In this document: one piece after another, positions 1,737 to 21,559 of the stretch
Layout of the letters: each line of letters opens with the position of its first letter
Numbering within the stretch: position 1 is the stretch's first letter
DNA from: Candidatus Nanohalobium sp.
GTDB taxonomy: Archaea > Nanohalarchaeota > Nanosalinia > Nanosalinales > Nanosalinaceae
NCBI GenBank assembly: GCA_042217555.1
Contig: JBDGSL010000052.1
Location: forward strand, 1 to 23,417
Direction: 5' to 3'
DNA length: 23,417 nucleotides
The notes under the pieces: generated by a model
Seen by the model: the letters and a program-made list of their open reading frames with translations, nothing else
The model's database searches: none
Told to the model about the DNA's origin: nothing
Made by a program: the position numbers and the translations under genes

Positions 1737-2882
1737 ATGAGCAAAAAGATTGAAAATCTTGATATAAAGAACTTTAAGGCATTTACAGATATCGAGATAA
1801 AGCCAAAGAAACTTAATATTATCACTGGCTGTAATAACACTGGTAAAAGCTCTATTATAGAATCTGTGGATATAGCTAATAATCCAAGCAATATAGAATC
1901 ATTCTCAAATCATGGTATCAGAGATTTGATAAATCTAGATGCTGAACAGTCTGAAATTACTCTAAATAAGGAAAAGACAGTAAGAATCAGGCCTCCCAGA
2001 GATTTCAAAGAAATAAGCAGTTCTGTAGGCGCTAAGTTCCTCAAAGATTACGATAGAATAAGCGAAAAATTTTCAGACCAGGATTCTGAAGAAGTAACTG
2101 AGGAAGATATCTCTGCTATCATTGAGCAGTCTAAGGATCTTTCAGAAAAACTTACTCAAAAAGCTACTGTAATAGAACAAGAAGAAGACAAGCAAGTATT
2201 TTTCGACAATATTGGAGCCAATATTAGAACAGATATTATTGCAGGTATTATTGAGAACCTGCATCCTGAGGAGTCTGAAGAGTCTATTGATAACGTAGAA
2301 AGGCTGGTTTATCCAGGTATGTGGCACCACAGAGAGAATAGTATCCTAGATGAGTATAGAATAGGAGGACATCACCTTGAACAGGATGATGCTGTAATCC
2401 AGGAAAAGATAGAGAAGTTTGTAGAGGAGCATAATCTTATAGATAATTTCTCAGGCTTCAGAGAAGGAGAAATAGTCCTAGAAAGGGAAGATGGGGAACT
2501 AAGCTCTCTACCACTGGCCTATATGGGAGACGGCTTCAGAGCAATTATAGGCCTAGTCAGAAAAATAATTGTTTCAGACTATAATACGGTGCTTGTTGAA
2601 GAACCAGAAAACCATCTACATCCTGGTTATGTATCAGAGCTAGTAGACTTCATAGTAGAACAGACAAAGGAATCTGAACTACAATTCTTCATAACTACGC
2701 ATAACGCAGACTTCATCGAAGAATTCTACTCAACGCGATTTAAAGAAGATGAAGCACTTCATAGCGAGTTTAAGCTTTTTAGACTACAAAGAAGAGGTTT
2801 TATAGAATCTATGAGTTATGAGGAATCAAGAAAAGAACTCGAAGACCTAAAAATGGATCTAAGAGGAAACAAACAAAGGTAG
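1737..2882 (+). CDS. ABC-type/AAA ATPase (AAA_15/AAA_21, OLD/AriA-like)
   Basis: N-terminal IxNFKAF, Walker A GCNNTGKSS, signature-like MGDGFR, Walker B/D-loop VLVEEPENHLHP, H-loop FITTHN and C-terminal DLRG. Confidence 0.9.
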   Translation: MSKKIENLDIKNFKAFTDIEIKPKKLNIITGCNNTGKSSIIESVDIANNPSNIESFSNHGIRDLINLDAEQSEITLNKEKTVRIRPPRDFKEISSSVGAKFLKDYDRISEKFSDQDSEEVTEEDISAIIEQSKDLSEKLTQKATVIEQEEDKQVFFDNIGANIRTDIIAGIIENLHPEESEESIDNVERLVYPGMWHHRENSILDEYRIGGHHLEQDDAVIQEKIEKFVEEHNLIDNFSGFREGEIVLEREDGELSSLPLAYMGDGFRAIIGLVRKIIVSDYNTVLVEEPENHLHPGYVSELVDFIVEQTKESELQFFITTHNADFIEEFYSTRFKEDEALHSEFKLFRLQRRGFIESMSYEESRKELEDLKMDLRGNKQR

Positions 2883-2889
2883 GAAATAA

Positions 2890-3477
2890 ATGTGCCTGAT
2901 AATCTGTGAAGGAAAATACGACACACTTTTTCTACAGGAGGTCATAGAGAACAGTTCAGAGTTAAAAACAGACAGATACACAGGCAAGGAAGAAGATAAA
3001 TTATATCAGCAACAGGACTACATGGAAAGCTTCGAATATAGGCCTGAGAACGTACTAATTAAAGGAGAATCGGGCAAAGACTACCAACTACAGATTTACA
3101 AAAACCAGTTGCTGGGCTTTGACAGAAAATACAAAAATCACTTCCTGCTCTGGGACCTAGATGGTGCAAAACCAGAACATAAATTCGAAAAATACAAGAA
3201 TCATCTAAAACAGCGTTTTCAGGCCCATACAGTAAAATTCGAAATGAATATAACTGGAGAAAACCAAGTATTCTACTCAATAAAACTAACCGGCAAAATA
3301 GGAAATCATCAATTTATAACACCAATAATAGCATTTAAAACTAATTTAGAGGAAGAAGCAAATATTAATAGACAAAAACACAACGAAAAACAAAAAACTG
3401 AGAAAACTAAGAGATTAGCTAGTAAAGAATCTGTTTTAAACTTTATAAAATCTAATTTAGTGCAAAAAATAATTTAA
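2890..3477 (+). CDS. TOPRIM-fold putative nuclease (DUF3226/DUF4435-like) coupled to the ATPase
   Basis: Starts 7 bp after the ATPase stop. It has the N-terminal hhhhEGxxD motif (LIICEGKYD), a glycine loop (GESGK) and a DxD motif (LLWDLDG), which are TOPRIM hallmarks. Confidence 0.7.
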   Translation: MCLIICEGKYDTLFLQEVIENSSELKTDRYTGKEEDKLYQQQDYMESFEYRPENVLIKGESGKDYQLQIYKNQLLGFDRKYKNHFLLWDLDGAKPEHKFEKYKNHLKQRFQAHTVKFEMNITGENQVFYSIKLTGKIGNHQFITPIIAFKTNLEEEANINRQKHNEKQKTEKTKRLASKESVLNFIKSNLVQKII

Positions 3478-3479
3478 AA

Positions 3480-6400
3480 CTAATTTTTGACCTCCTCAAA
3501 CTTCTCTAAAATCCTCTCCTTCTCTTTATCTCCAGTATCCAGCGAATCCAAGACAGTCTCAACCTCTTCCTCAGTTAAGTCATACAGATCGAAGACAATC
3601 GCATCAATCTCGTTCTCCAGTTCGTCTATTTCCTGCATTAGAGGCCTCAAAGTATCCATGGAGCTCTCCCATTCCTCTTTCATCAACTCCCTGAACTCAC
3701 GGGACTTAACACTTCCATCAATCTGAGACTTATTCTTCTTCGCAACCCGCATAAACTCATCAAAATCATACTCCCAATACTCACGCAAATGAGTCTTCAA
3801 AGACAAATCATCAACATCAACACCCCACTCAGCCTCAACCCACTCCAAGAAACTATTCTTCTCATCTAAGAAGGCCTCTTTACTCTCATAGGTTTCTTTC
3901 GTTTTCTCTCTTAGTTTTTCGCTTGATTTCTCTGGGACTGGGAGGGCTTCGAGAGTTGATTGATTCAGTTGTGGGAAGACATCTCTATAACCGCCTTCAG
4001 TTAAGTCGTGATAGAACTCTATCAGCGAAGAATTCGTTACACCCATCAAATTGAATGGCCTATCAGTAATACAGTTGTAAACAGATTTTATCGAATAAAC
4101 GCCTTCTTCATCAAAAGCACCTCTGATTTCTCCGCCTGTCTGCCGGTAAACAAGTTTCTCTTCTTGATAGTATCGCTCTTCCTTTTCTATTTCATCAGGA
4201 TCAATGAAGAGATAATTATTAGGATCTACAGAATATCTTTGAATCGCTGTTCCTGAAATTATTGGTTCTCCTTCACCAGTAATTTTGTCGCTTCTCTTTC
4301 CAATTTCCTCCCCTCTTTTCACATCAGCGAAAGTTTCAAATTGGGCATCTACGCCTTCTACTTTCTTTATAACCTCTATTTTTGCATCAGATAGTTTCAG
4401 GTCAAACCTGTAGTTATCGTTTTGCAAGAAGTATTCCTGAGAAATCTCATTTCTCTCACCTTCCAGTTCATCGTTTTTTCGAAGGAAGCAGGAAATTTGA
4501 TGATTTTCATCTATATCTTGGGATTTGGATGCTACAAAAATCGAGTTGCCCGACTCAACCCCCTCAAATACTTGTTTAGCCCACAATAGCTTGTCAATCT
4601 TCGTATTTTCAAGCAAGTATTTTCTCATTACTGAAATCTGCTCTCGGGATAGCAGAGAATCCGGTACAATGTACGACATTTTTCCTTCGAAATCCGTCAG
4701 CTCTATGGCTCGCTCTGAGAATATTGTGTAGAGATCAAACTGATCTTTTGCAACTTCGAAATTGTCTCTAAGATAAGGCCTGACTGAGTCGTGGATATTT
4801 GCGCTGATATCACTTCTTCCCGCTGAGGCCACATATGGAGGGTTTCCTATTACTGCGTCGAAGCCTTGTGTTTGGCCGAAGAATACTTTGGGGAATTCTA
4901 GTTGCCAGTGGAAGTAGTTGCGGTTTTCTGCGTCTTGTTGGGCGTTTTTGTACCATTTTGTGTTTTCGAATGGGTTGCCGGGGTTTCCGATGTTGATTAG
5001 GAAGCTTTCGTAGTCTGAGCTGTTGGCTTCTTTTTCGAAGTATTGGCGTGTGTGGATGTTGGCGAGTTGTTGGAACTGTTGGTAGAGTACGTTGTTGGAG
5101 ATGAACTGTTTGTATGCCTGTTCTTTTTCGTGGATTTGTTTGACTGTGTTTTCCGGCATTTGTTCGATTTCCAGGTACTGTCTCTGGAAGTTGTCTCTGG
5201 CTTCTTCCGGGCTGAAGTTGAAGTCTTCGCTATCCAGTCTTTTCTGTTTCTCTGTCGGATGTGAAAAGATTTCGTTGAAGTCTGAGCCGATTAATGAGTT
5301 TCCGTGTTTGAGGTGGTGGTCGAGGAAGTTCAAGGGTTTTCCTTCGGCCATTGTTTCGATCCAGAGACTTAGTTTTCCGAGTTCTACTGCTAGTGGGTTG
5401 ATGTCGACTCCGTAGATGCAGTTCTGTACTACCTGTCTTTTCGCCCAGTTTAGTTCGTCTTCGTTTTGGTCTATATCCTGGTTTTTCAGGTCTGCGTGTT
5501 CTACTATGTGTTCTGCGATGAACTCTGTTGCTTCGGTGAGGAAGTGGCCTGACCCCATTGCTGGGTCAACAACGTTCAGCTCCAGTACTTTTGGCAGGAT
5601 TTTTTCGTCGTTTTCTTCTGCTTCGGAAATTTTTTCTTCTACTTTTGGTCCTACCGTGTTTTTGACTATGTATTCTACGATGTATTCTGGCGTGTAGTAG
5701 CTTCCTGTGGCTTTTCTTTCCCCTGATTCGTTTGTAAGGTAGAGTTCTCCTTCTTCTACTCTTTTGTCTTCGTCAACTTCTTCCCAGTCATCTTCTTTTG
5801 AGAAGTCTTTCCATTCTCCGTTTTCAAGAATTTTTCTCTGGTCTGCTGCTTTGAATTCGTGTTCGAGGAGGCCTTCGTAGACGCTTCCGAGGTGTCTGAT
5901 GTTCAAATCCTTGTAGTCGACGAGTACTTTTTCGTCTTCGACTTTTGTCGTGGCGAGTAGATCCAGGATTTCTTTGAGGTGGTCTCCCTGTAGCTGTTTT
6001 TCTGCGAGGAACTTGTTTTCTTCTGTTTCTTCGTCGTCGAAGAGTCCTCCGTTGTATGCCGGTATTTCGAAGTCCCCGTAGTCTCTTCCGTTGTTGATGG
6101 CTTCGAAGAGGTTGGAGATTCTTTCCTGCCAGAGCCATGTGTTTTCTGGGAAAGTGTTGCTTTCCTCATCTGAGAGGAGCTGTTCTTTCAGAAATTCGAA
6201 GCTCAGTTGATCCTGATAGATATCATTTTCTACAGGTAGTAGATCTCGGCTTTCGGCGTTCAGTATGAAGAGCACTCTGTAGAGGAAAATTAGGGATGCA
6301 TGGTGAACGAGGTCAATGTTTTCCTCTGTTTTCTCAATATCATTCGTTTCGAAGAATCCTTCCACAGCTACTTCAAGTGCATCATAGACTTTATCCTCAA

Positions 6401-7106
6401 GATCGTCCTCAAGTCCTTCTGCATATTTGACTGATTCCTGGTACACTTCTGCCAGGAAGTCGCCTTCAAAGCTTTTCGCCCTGAAGAACAGGTAGAAGTA
6501 CTTAAAAGCCTCTAATTTTTCTTCTGTTTTTTCTCCGGCCAGTAGGTTTTCAAGATCTATTTCGAAGTAGATGTCTGCTGCACAGTCCTCATAGCTATAA
6601 AGCCTCCACTTCTTCCCGTTTGTCAGGATTCCCCAGTCGGCTCGAAGCCGGTCGACGTAGTTGTAGATTTGGAATGCAGGGTTGGTGTGGTCTTGGGAGG
6701 ATTTGTCAAGCTTTAGACCCCAGCTTTTGGCGTCTCCTACGGCGTATTCTACGTCCAGTGCTTCTTCTTCGCCTCTGTGAACTTTGGGTGTTTCGCCTGG
6801 ACTCATGAAGGCGTAATCCGGGTTCAGTGTCTTTCCATCTTTACGGGATCCAACTCTCTTGCTTGCTTCTGTAACCCAGGCGTGGCCCAGCTTCCTTAGT
6901 ATCGGGTCAATGAAGTTTTCCTGGGTCTGATCCTCGTTCAGGTTCTCGGAAAGAATCTCTTTCTTCTCTTGGTAGAACTCTCTCAGCTCGTCGAACTTTT
7001 CCTCGAAATCGACCTCGTTCCATTCTTCTCTGTCCTGAATTCTTTCTTCTAGGAAGTGGTTTGAGAAAAGATTGTTGCTGTAGTTGCTGACAGTTATCTG
7101 AGCCAC
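3480..7106 (-). CDS. Fused type IIG/IIL restriction-modification enzyme (endonuclease + N6-adenine MTase + target-recognition domain; Eco57I/TaqI-C-like)
   Basis: 1208 aa. N-terminal PD-(D/E)xK nuclease (NPDYAF...GDAKSW, Q..Y, WGILTNGKKWRLY), YNGGLF, LGSVYEGLL, RKATGSYYTP, motif I DPAMGSGHFL, IYGVDINPLAVEL, FHWQLEFP, motif IV GFDAVIGNPPY, then a TRD and a C-terminal helical region (IDAIVFDLYDLT). Confidence 0.93.
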   Translation of the reverse strand: MAQITVSNYSNNLFSNHFLEERIQDREEWNEVDFEEKFDELREFYQEKKEILSENLNEDQTQENFIDPILRKLGHAWVTEASKRVGSRKDGKTLNPDYAFMSPGETPKVHRGEEEALDVEYAVGDAKSWGLKLDKSSQDHTNPAFQIYNYVDRLRADWGILTNGKKWRLYSYEDCAADIYFEIDLENLLAGEKTEEKLEAFKYFYLFFRAKSFEGDFLAEVYQESVKYAEGLEDDLEDKVYDALEVAVEGFFETNDIEKTEENIDLVHHASLIFLYRVLFILNAESRDLLPVENDIYQDQLSFEFLKEQLLSDEESNTFPENTWLWQERISNLFEAINNGRDYGDFEIPAYNGGLFDDEETEENKFLAEKQLQGDHLKEILDLLATTKVEDEKVLVDYKDLNIRHLGSVYEGLLEHEFKAADQRKILENGEWKDFSKEDDWEEVDEDKRVEEGELYLTNESGERKATGSYYTPEYIVEYIVKNTVGPKVEEKISEAEENDEKILPKVLELNVVDPAMGSGHFLTEATEFIAEHIVEHADLKNQDIDQNEDELNWAKRQVVQNCIYGVDINPLAVELGKLSLWIETMAEGKPLNFLDHHLKHGNSLIGSDFNEIFSHPTEKQKRLDSEDFNFSPEEARDNFQRQYLEIEQMPENTVKQIHEKEQAYKQFISNNVLYQQFQQLANIHTRQYFEKEANSSDYESFLINIGNPGNPFENTKWYKNAQQDAENRNYFHWQLEFPKVFFGQTQGFDAVIGNPPYVASAGRSDISANIHDSVRPYLRDNFEVAKDQFDLYTIFSERAIELTDFEGKMSYIVPDSLLSREQISVMRKYLLENTKIDKLLWAKQVFEGVESGNSIFVASKSQDIDENHQISCFLRKNDELEGERNEISQEYFLQNDNYRFDLKLSDAKIEVIKKVEGVDAQFETFADVKRGEEIGKRSDKITGEGEPIISGTAIQRYSVDPNNYLFIDPDEIEKEERYYQEEKLVYRQTGGEIRGAFDEEGVYSIKSVYNCITDRPFNLMGVTNSSLIEFYHDLTEGGYRDVFPQLNQSTLEALPVPEKSSEKLREKTKETYESKEAFLDEKNSFLEWVEAEWGVDVDDLSLKTHLREYWEYDFDEFMRVAKKNKSQIDGSVKSREFRELMKEEWESSMDTLRPLMQEIDELENEIDAIVFDLYDLTEEEVETVLDSLDTGDKEKERILEKFEEVKN

Positions 7107-20221: not shown

Positions 20222-20364
20222 GCCGCGTTAGCTCAGCTGGTAGAGCACGTCCTTGGTAGGAACTTCTGAAAGCTCCACCATCATAGCACATTCAGTATAA
20301 CTGAATGCACTTCGGAAGTTTTCCAAACAGGACGAGGCCCCGGGTTCAAATCCCGGACGTGGCT
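20222..20364 (+). tRNA. tRNA-Thr(GGT) with a 70-nt intron at canonical position 37/38 (intron 20259-20328)
   Basis: Acceptor GCCGCGT/ACGTGGC with U73, D-arm GCTCAGCTGGTAGAGC, anticodon stem CGTCC/GGACG with loop TTGGTA|A, and T-arm CCGGG-TTCAAAT-CCCGG. The splice junction is a bulge-helix-bulge (TA|G, TTGG/CCAA, AC|A). ATTTAAAG lies upstream at about 20173. Confidence 0.92.
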
Positions 20365-20516
20365 ACCTGTTAACGGATAAATCTTCTTCCCGGAAGCTTC
20401 AGGGTCTTGAAAAAGTTCTCTGCCCCCCCCTCTAACTGCCGCCTGTACACTCATATTAGAGCCTGGTAGAAAACAGGTACGAACACACCTTGGGGATAAA
20501 TGAACACAGACAACAG

Positions 20517-20536
20517 TGGACTCTCCAGGAGTTGAA
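20517..20536 (-). repeat. Degenerate copy of the tRNA-Ala 3' end (att-like scar)
   Basis: TGGACTCTCCAGGAGTTGAA versus tRNA TGGACTCTCTGGGATTTGAA (21486-21505): 17/20 identical. Confidence 0.6.
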
Positions 20537-20548
20537 GATCAGAGATTC

Positions 20549-20633
20549 GAAGATTCTAAACGAATCTTCTCCAAGAAAATTCTACCAGAATTTTCGTTTT
20601 CATGGCCCGATTCGCCATATCCTCCGGATATGG
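20549..20633. repeat. Three consecutive perfect hairpins
   Basis: GAAGATTC-TAAAC-GAATCTTC (20549-20569), GAAAATTCT-ACC-AGAATTTTC (20575-20595) and CCATATCC-TCC-GGATATGG (20615-20633). Confidence 0.75.
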
Positions 20634-20650
20634 ACTCTCTGGGATTCGAA
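20630..20650 (-). repeat. Copy of the tRNA-Ala 3' end (att-like scar)
   Basis: ATGGACTCTCTGGGATTCGAA versus 21485-21505 ATGGACTCTCTGGGATTTGAA: 20/21 identical. Confidence 0.85.
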
Positions 20651-20673
20651 ACTCGAAGCTAAATCTCCAGACT

Positions 20674-21492
20674 CGGGGCATGTGATGGACTCCTTGCCTT
20701 TCCACTCCCCGAATCACGTTAAAGGCATTACGGACAACTCTCCCTATGTTAAACACAGTTAAACAAAGTTTTATTTGAATAGGGCGTATAGCAGTCTCGA
20801 CCCAAACACATTTAAGTGTTACTAAACAATAACAACTTGTGATAATATGGCGGAACATACTACACCATCGATGAACTCTTCAGATGTTTATGCAGAAGGA
20901 AAAGTTTCTCCTTCAGAAGCAGAACAGGTAATGGCAAATCTCACGAACGGAAGCGTAGGAGTTGAATACAATGGACCAAGAGGTTTAGAAGATAGACAAT
21001 TAGTTGAACCTCAAGAAGCTGCGGAAGTTCTCAATACCGCACTTGAATACGCCGCACAAATGACTCCAGACGAAAGACTGGAAAGAGAAGAAGCTATGGA
21101 AGCACTTGGATTTGACAACTCTGCCTATGGAAGCGGTTCAGTTGTCCAAGAACTCGTAGAGGGTCATGGCGAACAAGGAACAGACACTCCTGTATATCTA
21201 ATGGTGGACTTCAACGAAGATATAGCGAACGAAGGGAATGGAGTCGGCTCAGGAATCGCAGTCGTGGTAGATAACCTCCAAACCGCCGCTAGGTCTACTG
21301 AAGAAGACTATGAAGCGAACCTAACATTCACAGGAAATATGGCAGGAGAACTCGGTGAGGCTTACCAGACAGTAGCTGACCTATAGAGAAACAATTCTTT
21401 AATCATCTCTTATCTCTTCCTTCTACTTATTGGTCTGCCGAGATATTCATTAATTATAAAAGAATAACAGATACGGGGCATGTGATGGACTC
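20674..21492. mobile_element. Single-gene cassette bounded by an exact 19-bp direct repeat at the tRNA-Ala 3' end
   Basis: CGGGGCATGTGATGGACTC occurs at 20674-20692 and 21474-21492, 800 bp apart. The second copy overlaps the last 7 nt of tRNA-Ala. The repeat encloses only the 179-aa ORF. Confidence 0.6.
20847..21386 (+). CDS. Hypothetical, extremely acidic protein
   Basis: 179-aa ORF that is D/E-rich with a single Lys, with an ATTTAAGT TATA-like box at 20810-20817; no family recognised. Confidence 0.8.
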   Translation: MAEHTTPSMNSSDVYAEGKVSPSEAEQVMANLTNGSVGVEYNGPRGLEDRQLVEPQEAAEVLNTALEYAAQMTPDERLEREEAMEALGFDNSAYGSGSVVQELVEGHGEQGTDTPVYLMVDFNEDIANEGNGVGSGIAVVVDNLQTAARSTEEDYEANLTFTGNMAGELGEAYQTVADL

Positions 21493-21559
21493 TCTGGGAT
21501 TTGAACCCAGGGCCTTCTCCGTGCCAGGGAGACGTTCTGCCAGGCTGAACTAAGAGCCC
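21486..21559 (-). tRNA. tRNA-Ala(GGC)
   Basis: GGGCTCTTAGTTCAGCCTGGCAGAACGTCTCCCTGGCACGGAGAAGGCCCTGGGTTCAAATCCCAGAGAGTCCA: G3:U70 pair, A73, anticodon loop CT-GGC-AC; CCA not encoded. Confidence 0.95.

Follow-up and report, generated by a model that had tools for sequence, protein, structure and literature searches.

An integrase-less family of small cassettes with shared ends at tRNA-Ala genes of Nanohaloarchaea

The window analysed here, the whole 23,417-nucleotide stretch of contig JBDGSL010000052.1 of Candidatus Nanohalobium sp., contains a single gene that lies beside a tRNA-Ala gene and is bounded by two exact copies of a short repeat. The locus raises the question of what kind of unit this is and how a gene without a recombinase of its own could have reached the tRNA. 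The initial annotation read it as an integron-like cassette, the distal repeat copy acting as a folded single-stranded site for an integrase supplied in trans. The parts of the locus are as follows.

21486-21559, minus strand: tRNA-Ala(GGC), the target gene, whose last 7 nt (GAGTCCA, 21486-21492) are the att core
21459-21485, minus strand: cassette left end, a 7-nt spacer and a CCCCG box followed by TATCTGTTATTCTTT
20847-21386, plus strand: cargo gene encoding a 179-aa acidic protein of no known family
20810-20834, plus strand: cargo promoter, a TATA-like TTTAAG followed by a TGTTAC..TAACA palindrome
20693-20776, minus strand: conserved non-coding right end with dyads and a GGGG box
20686-20692, minus strand: distal copy of the 7-bp core
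20670-20685, minus strand: second left-end-like sequence of the CCCCGAGT type, which is found in integrase-bearing elements
20516-20669, minus strand: older debris, copies of the tRNA-Ala 3' end with hairpin mini-repeats between them
20222-20364, plus strand: intron-containing tRNA-Thr(GGT), a convergent neighbour outside the cassette

The repeat is real. An exact 19-mer that cannot be extended was found at both ends of the unit (20674-20692 and 21474-21492), where the chance expectation for such a pair in the window is about 0.001. As described before, it consists of the final 7 nt of tRNA-Ala(GGC) and 12 nt of trailer; the att core, on the other hand, does not extend beyond the tRNA as had been thought, because a filled and an empty allele in relatives (G019 and G031, below) overlap by exactly 7 nt, which places the core inside the tRNA. 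The family core is 7 bp long, from which the window departs locally by 12 additional nt. In the window a second left-end-like sequence, with the spacer in common and unique to this genome, abuts the distal core, so that the junction is attP-like and the repeat is lengthened to 19 bp. The extension may have arisen by re-integration into an older remnant or by gene conversion. In the 1.31-Mb genome of 88 contigs the 19-mer had no further copies with up to 3 mismatches allowed; the 7-bp core and the ends of the cassette are shared by relatives. The TATCTGTTATTCTTT sequence of the left end is also present in G001:C34, and the copy in G067 is less close.

The gene has its own TATA-like box, TTTAAG at 20811-20816 as judged by the archaeal consensus, where a TATA box had been proposed. 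The conserved right end had been overlooked, as had two further copies of the tRNA-Ala 3' end in the debris (20631-20650, 19 of 20 nt matching, and 20516-20536). Within the right end lie a 19-bp TGT..ACA palindrome (20747-20765), a TGCCTTT/AAAGGCA dyad (20727-20695) and the GGGG box (20707-20710).

Some neighbouring features were also recorded. Positions 20600-20730, which take in part of the hairpin mini-repeat region, folded far better than shuffled sequences (z -3.1 and -4.4); related hairpin repeats occur at seven other places in the window genome (G000), one of them in a tRNA-Leu intron, and also behind tRNA-Ala in G025, G032, G014 and G064. The TGTTAC-N-TAACA palindrome after a TATA-like box was also found upstream of unrelated short genes elsewhere (G000 C75, G008, G035, G031, G027, G061 and G070), which form a candidate regulon of a putative repressor. 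At the contig end, positions 490-606 hold a broken C-terminal tyrosine-integrase fragment with a stop, adjoining an AAA ATPase and an Eco57I-type restriction-modification gene (1737-7106), the edge of another island.

The cargo gene had been called an orphan, and no match to the 179-aa protein was found in Pfam, NCBIfam or Atlas. It is not a strict orphan, however: nine homologues share 49-77% identity with it, one of them named from Nanohaloarchaea, and of four further matches only two are relatives, both distant. Among 70 genomes of the order the gene is present in two. Relative to all nine homologues the window gene has a 17-codon in-frame deletion, at the place of which homologous contigs from two sequencing runs (X3 and X4) are longer by about 50 nt. 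The structure model of the window protein was poor (pLDDT 38) and that of an undeleted homologue good (pLDDT 81); in the latter the deletion would remove a predicted helix (residues 173-182). Fold searches with these models gave no clear match (best Z 3.7), which should not be read as evidence that the cargo fold is new.

Window positions 20660-20850, which include the right end, were compared by BLAST with 50 genomes of the family. Positions 20686-20776 matched 11 other places in nine other genomes with 75-86% identity, the alignments ending where the 7-mer GAGTCCA ends; altogether 19 of the 49 other family genomes were matched, 10 of these at the promoter motif only. A sequence-only model was built from 15 copies and applied to 70 genomes of the order; 10 of them gave 15 places in total, every one in the family of the window organism (12 had served for training, two were new, degenerate and close to tRNA-Ala, and one was marginal). 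A pattern scan of 185,579 species returned nine loci, seven titled Nanohaloarchaea or Nanohalobium, one from an uncultured archaeon and one bacterial chance match without the core. Metagenome contigs added two right-end loci, and in four brine runs from two studies between 3 and 24 other contigs per run overlapped the right end. No match to the right end, the left end or the integrase of G002 (see below) was found in viral contigs. The right ends in G067 and G001:C1 have no tRNA-Ala nearby, and in G003 the core is broken.

The left end was followed in a selected set of 56 tRNA-Ala-type 3' ends read in fetched loci, which is not a census. A shared left end (consensus AACCTACCCCGTATT) stood directly after 14 of them: seven with a right end within 6 kb, two in integrase-bearing elements and five with no right end found. 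At the two other right-end loci the left end was placed after a copy of the tRNA end. As judged from the sequences, the cassettes are an integrase-less family of about 0.5-1.5 kb at the tRNA-Ala 3' end in Nanohaloarchaea, recognised by the 7-bp core GAGTCCA, a short left end and a right end of about 90 bp.

Other left ends opened different structures. Parent-like left ends begin elements at tRNA-Ala(TGC) in G013 and G071, with neither an integrase nor a right end in the 7-9 kb read. In G001 (L088, G001:C34:1-6454) a series of small-enzyme genes (HD, glyoxalase, Nudix and inositol monophosphatase) that extends over more than 6 kb begins with the left end known from the window, and the contig stops before any right end. 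In G067 (L131, G067:C7, 484-497 kb) repeated multi-gene blocks, kept apart by tandem copies of tRNA-Ala(TGC) or of its 3' end, come after a 772-aa ORF containing an integrase.

A filled and an empty allele were found in G019 and G031, which belong to one genus. On either side of a 795-bp insert their sequences match to the base, and the two flanks have an overlap of exactly 7 nt, so that the filled and the empty allele differ by exactly one unit and one core. A homologue of the window cargo in G019 lies behind tRNA-Ala(CGC), at a place that is empty in G031. No recognisable right end lies alongside this homologue; one brine contig of the second study joins the right end to another homologue. 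Tandem arrays with two right ends each were found in G023, in G001, where the outer end is degenerate, and on a metagenome contig (L077) with a perfect attP-like junction.

Excision of the unit as an 800-bp circle had been suggested. The relatives do provide a precise empty allele, but neither an empty-allele joint nor a circle was found in the two runs that hold the window organism, each of which has one unbroken contig over the cassette; one of them, X1, is perhaps where the window itself comes from. No circle junction appeared in any of the four runs, for which the data were contigs, a form that drops rare variants. A joint of 20511 to 21486 in run X3 was considered as an empty allele and rejected, as this run has no cover at 20380-20531.

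The cargo between tRNA-Ala and the right end varied, with one to three unrelated genes per unit: two GNATs in G001; a HAD protein in G003; a cupin in G064; a HAD protein with a ParD/RHH and ParE-like toxin-antitoxin pair in G025; an APH-family kinase in G006 and G023; and orphans in G019, L078 and the window. The HAD cassettes of G003 and G025 share 86.6% identity over 771 bp and three flanking genes 70-73%; the APH cassettes of G006 and G023 share 88.9% over 1253 bp and one flanking gene 66.9%. With one to three genes per pair these flank controls are thin. Small enzymes and toxin-antitoxin pairs appear to move between genera through the tRNA slot. The view of this tRNA as a slot for exchangeable genes is borne out by the variable cargo, the precise empty allele, the tandem arrays and the sharing across genera. 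It was also correct that no recombinase is encoded inside: the single ORF of the window has no PF00589 domain, the cargo scans of relatives agree, and no integrase fragments were noted in the scanned cargo.

Two elements that use the same core do carry an integrase. In G002 and G012 elements of 5.4 and 4.8 kb, respectively, lie at the cassette core; they share the left end of the cassettes, carry another copy of the core at their distal boundary and encode a tyrosine integrase 66 nt past the tRNA (PF00589, 32.1 bits against a cut-off of 27.1 for G002; the G012 integrase is 88% identical to it). Small RHH and MazE-like genes neighbour the G002-type integrase. At the best register 13-19 of 34 nt agree between the right ends of these parent-type elements and those of the cassettes, and only 0-7 of 500 shuffles reached the alignment score of the parent end with four cassette ends, compared to 62-108 of 500 for a control element at another tRNA-Ala. 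In both kinds of right end CATAG is preceded by the TGT..ACA palindrome, and a GGGG box stands 14 nt ahead of the core. Since the same core and the same left end are used, the integrase family of these ~5-kb elements is likely to be the helper of the cassettes.

No such helper resides with the cassettes. In the 10 cassette-bearing genomes no homologue was found that exceeds 51% identity to the G002 integrase (the best in G000 has 42%), and the parent-type right end occurs in three of the 70 genomes, none of them cassette-bearing. Neither an integrase-bearing element with the exact cassette right end nor a tandem of cassette and integrase element was found. None of the integrase ORFs of G000 follows a tRNA-Ala end, its other tRNA-Ala genes not being found in the assembly. 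No shared host recombinase passed the XerA cut-off in five genomes. An apparently conserved weak PF00589 match (72-77% identity among G003, G019 and G023; C62 in G000) was rejected as a candidate because its sequence, by its motif, is that of a DEAD-box helicase. A helper would therefore have to be transient, unassembled or a relative not yet sampled. A family of tyrosine integrases, each about 470 aa long and bearing two CxxC motifs, was seen just after tRNA-Ala, tRNA-Pro and tRNA-Ile 3' ends (L099-L126); 24 of the 50 family genomes had a match at E<=1e-10, many of these matches being distant.

How these units move was then weighed. If the distal site were an attC-like bulged single-stranded hairpin used by an integron-type integrase in trans, a conserved fold and the attC boxes would be looked for at every junction. 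The window junction does fold as described, one strand forming an outer stem of 9 bp, and the arrays, the toxin-antitoxin cargo and the decay with distance are like those of integron arrays. The fold is not stable beyond chance (minus strand, -8.2 kcal/mol; 25 of 200 shuffles folded as well, z -1.33). On both strands of 12 junctions the hairpins had z from -1.3 to +1.9 and differed in structure at each, that of the window being specific to its genome, and the inner GTGGA/TCCAT stem rests on bases that vary in most other copies. The outer stem corresponds to inverted GGGG/CCCC boxes, 27 nt apart (28 in the window); if these are integrase-binding sites, as proposed, the hairpin would be explained as a DNA dyad. 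Integron attC sites span 40-160 nt between an R'' (RYYYAAC) and an R' (GTTRRRY) box, and this pair was found at none of the 12 junctions on either strand. In integron cassettes the cargo faces a single way with respect to the site; here it points toward the tRNA in five of 12 units and away in seven. No integron integrase (TIGR02249) passed the cut-off in five genomes (best 41.9 of 265 bits), a result to be read with four of the five being incomplete assemblies and not exclusive alone, as CALINs lack IntI. Integrons and CALINs do exist in archaea (PMC9668308), but the proposed single-strand mechanism is not supported here, and we consider it highly improbable. The cassettes resemble an integron array in outcome only.

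Two explanations dispense with site-specific mobility at present. After a first insertion, cargo could be swapped without an integrase by homologous recombination in the tRNA and the 90-bp end, the end perhaps being a regulatory site or a small RNA; the minimal mobile elements of Neisseria, exchanged by recombination in their flanks, are an analogue. Both flanks are conserved (75-99%), there is no resident helper, and the right end contains dyads and might form an acceptor-stem-like pairing with the core (86% of cells paired). As to the RNA, however, 435 of 500 shuffles scored as high for covariation, the dyad being nearly invariant, RNAalifold gave five pairs, none compensatory, and no Rfam family matched the right end; with no covariation to back it, the acceptor-stem or small-RNA reading was not adopted. 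Site-specific exchange, moreover, is needed to account for arrays that run head to tail with a single core for each unit, and for empty alleles that are precise, which makes this explanation rather improbable. It is also unlikely that the units are dead remnants, each decayed from a larger autonomous element, not yet sampled, that had the cassette right end, and that they have ceased to move by site-specific recombination. Decay is evident in several copies (the deletion in the window cargo, the broken core in G003, G019 without a right end), five of the 14 left ends lack a right end, no cassette-bearing genome has a helper and no circle was seen. Remnants would, however, hardly be compact units with near-identical boundaries that recur at 87-89% identity in different genera, with the cores and ends nearest the tRNA intact and no integrase fragments noted in the scanned cargo. 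The window unit is probably a member of a family of integrase-less cassettes with shared ends that is moved by the tyrosine integrase of the ~5-kb elements.

Under such integrase-driven movement, recombination would be an ordinary double-stranded tyrosine exchange within GAGTCCA, the inverted GGGG/CCCC boxes being candidate integrase-binding sites. The helper would visit transiently and work either in trans or through tandem accretion with co-excision, and a cassette would leave as a small circle or along with it. New units would come in at the tRNA and push older, decaying units outward. Unrelated genes may have gained the same ends by deletion within accreted arrays or by recombination between shared ends. 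It is conceivable, though we regard it as doubtful, that the cassettes form a maintained gene-capture system in which the standard ends make one to three genes a circle of less than 2 kb, and a visiting integrase specific for tRNA-Ala would load, stack and exchange such circles there across genera. Such a system would achieve an integron-like function by means of double-stranded att sites and the recombinase of another element.

The closest known class is that of the CIMEs and microCIMEs with site-specific tandem accretion. In the Streptococcus ICESt and IME loci these have lost the integration genes, keep attL and attR and undergo tandem accretion (PMC5704250, PMC7563491). The cassettes likewise contain no integration or transfer genes, the window ORF and the scanned cargo of relatives being without any, and keep both att ends (left end, core and right end, with the 7-bp overlap against the empty allele). 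They also insert at a gene 3' end, form tandem arrays in which the unit furthest from the target is the most decayed, and carry metabolic cargo. In contrast to CIMEs as described there, they have an archaeal (DPANN) host, measure 0.5-1.5 kb compared to 1.2-13 kb for CIMEs with cargo, bear one standard end pair on unrelated cargo in seven genera, and among the loci examined were never in tandem with an integrase-bearing element.

With tRNA-targeted islands and thaumarchaeal CIEs the cassettes share the tRNA 3'-end target and the 3' fragment duplicated at the far end, here the 7-bp core. CIEs carry their own integrase, the smallest reported in the part of the account available being 2.6 kb (PMC6563490); the cassettes have no tyrosine integrase in the unit, and it is the ~5-kb elements of G002 and G012 that fit this class. 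The haloarchaeal provirus SNJ2 is described as having a 14-bp core at tRNA-Met, conserved P and P' arms and small accessory proteins, and a plasmid-supplied integrase was used on integrase-defective hosts (PMC5861418). The nanohaloarchaeal system is similar in a core that overlaps the tRNA 3' end, in conserved flanking arms and in small accessory proteins, and differs in the 7-bp core and in the target, tRNA-Ala. Integron cassettes and CALINs (PMC9668308) also form arrays of units of one to three genes that lack a recombinase, have a repeated end and carry toxin-antitoxin cargo, but unlike them the nanohaloarchaeal units have no attC boxes, no conserved hairpin and no IntI, use a tRNA instead of attI, have cargo in both orientations and, in the window cassette, a promoter of their own.

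The available part of the archaeal integron paper (PMC9668308) makes no mention of Nanohaloarchaea, and that of a preprint on the nanohaloarchaeal virome (10.1101/2025.02.15.638363) does not describe the cassettes; in the literature covered, which included few subscription papers and no supplements, no description of the family was found. Islander rejects candidates that are smaller than 2 kb or lack an integrase (PMC4383910), so that the cassettes, being both, would be filtered out. Finders that require an integrase and more than 2 kb would miss such units, and gene flow of this kind may be undercounted. For nanohaloarchaea, which have streamlined genomes of about 1 Mb and whose gain of accessory genes is little known, the cassettes offer a concrete, sequence-defined route. 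The candidate integrase, whose site comprises a 7-bp core and short arms, could become an integration tool.

One right end lies in a different setting. Its core altered, it stands in G001 (L080, G001:C1, about 21.7-29.8 kb) between prgI-like and traG/virB4-like genes, together with toxin-antitoxin-like pairs and a DDE transposase, inside a putative nanohaloarchaeal conjugative element. Judging by its gene content, this conjugation-gene region is a possible vehicle for cassettes.
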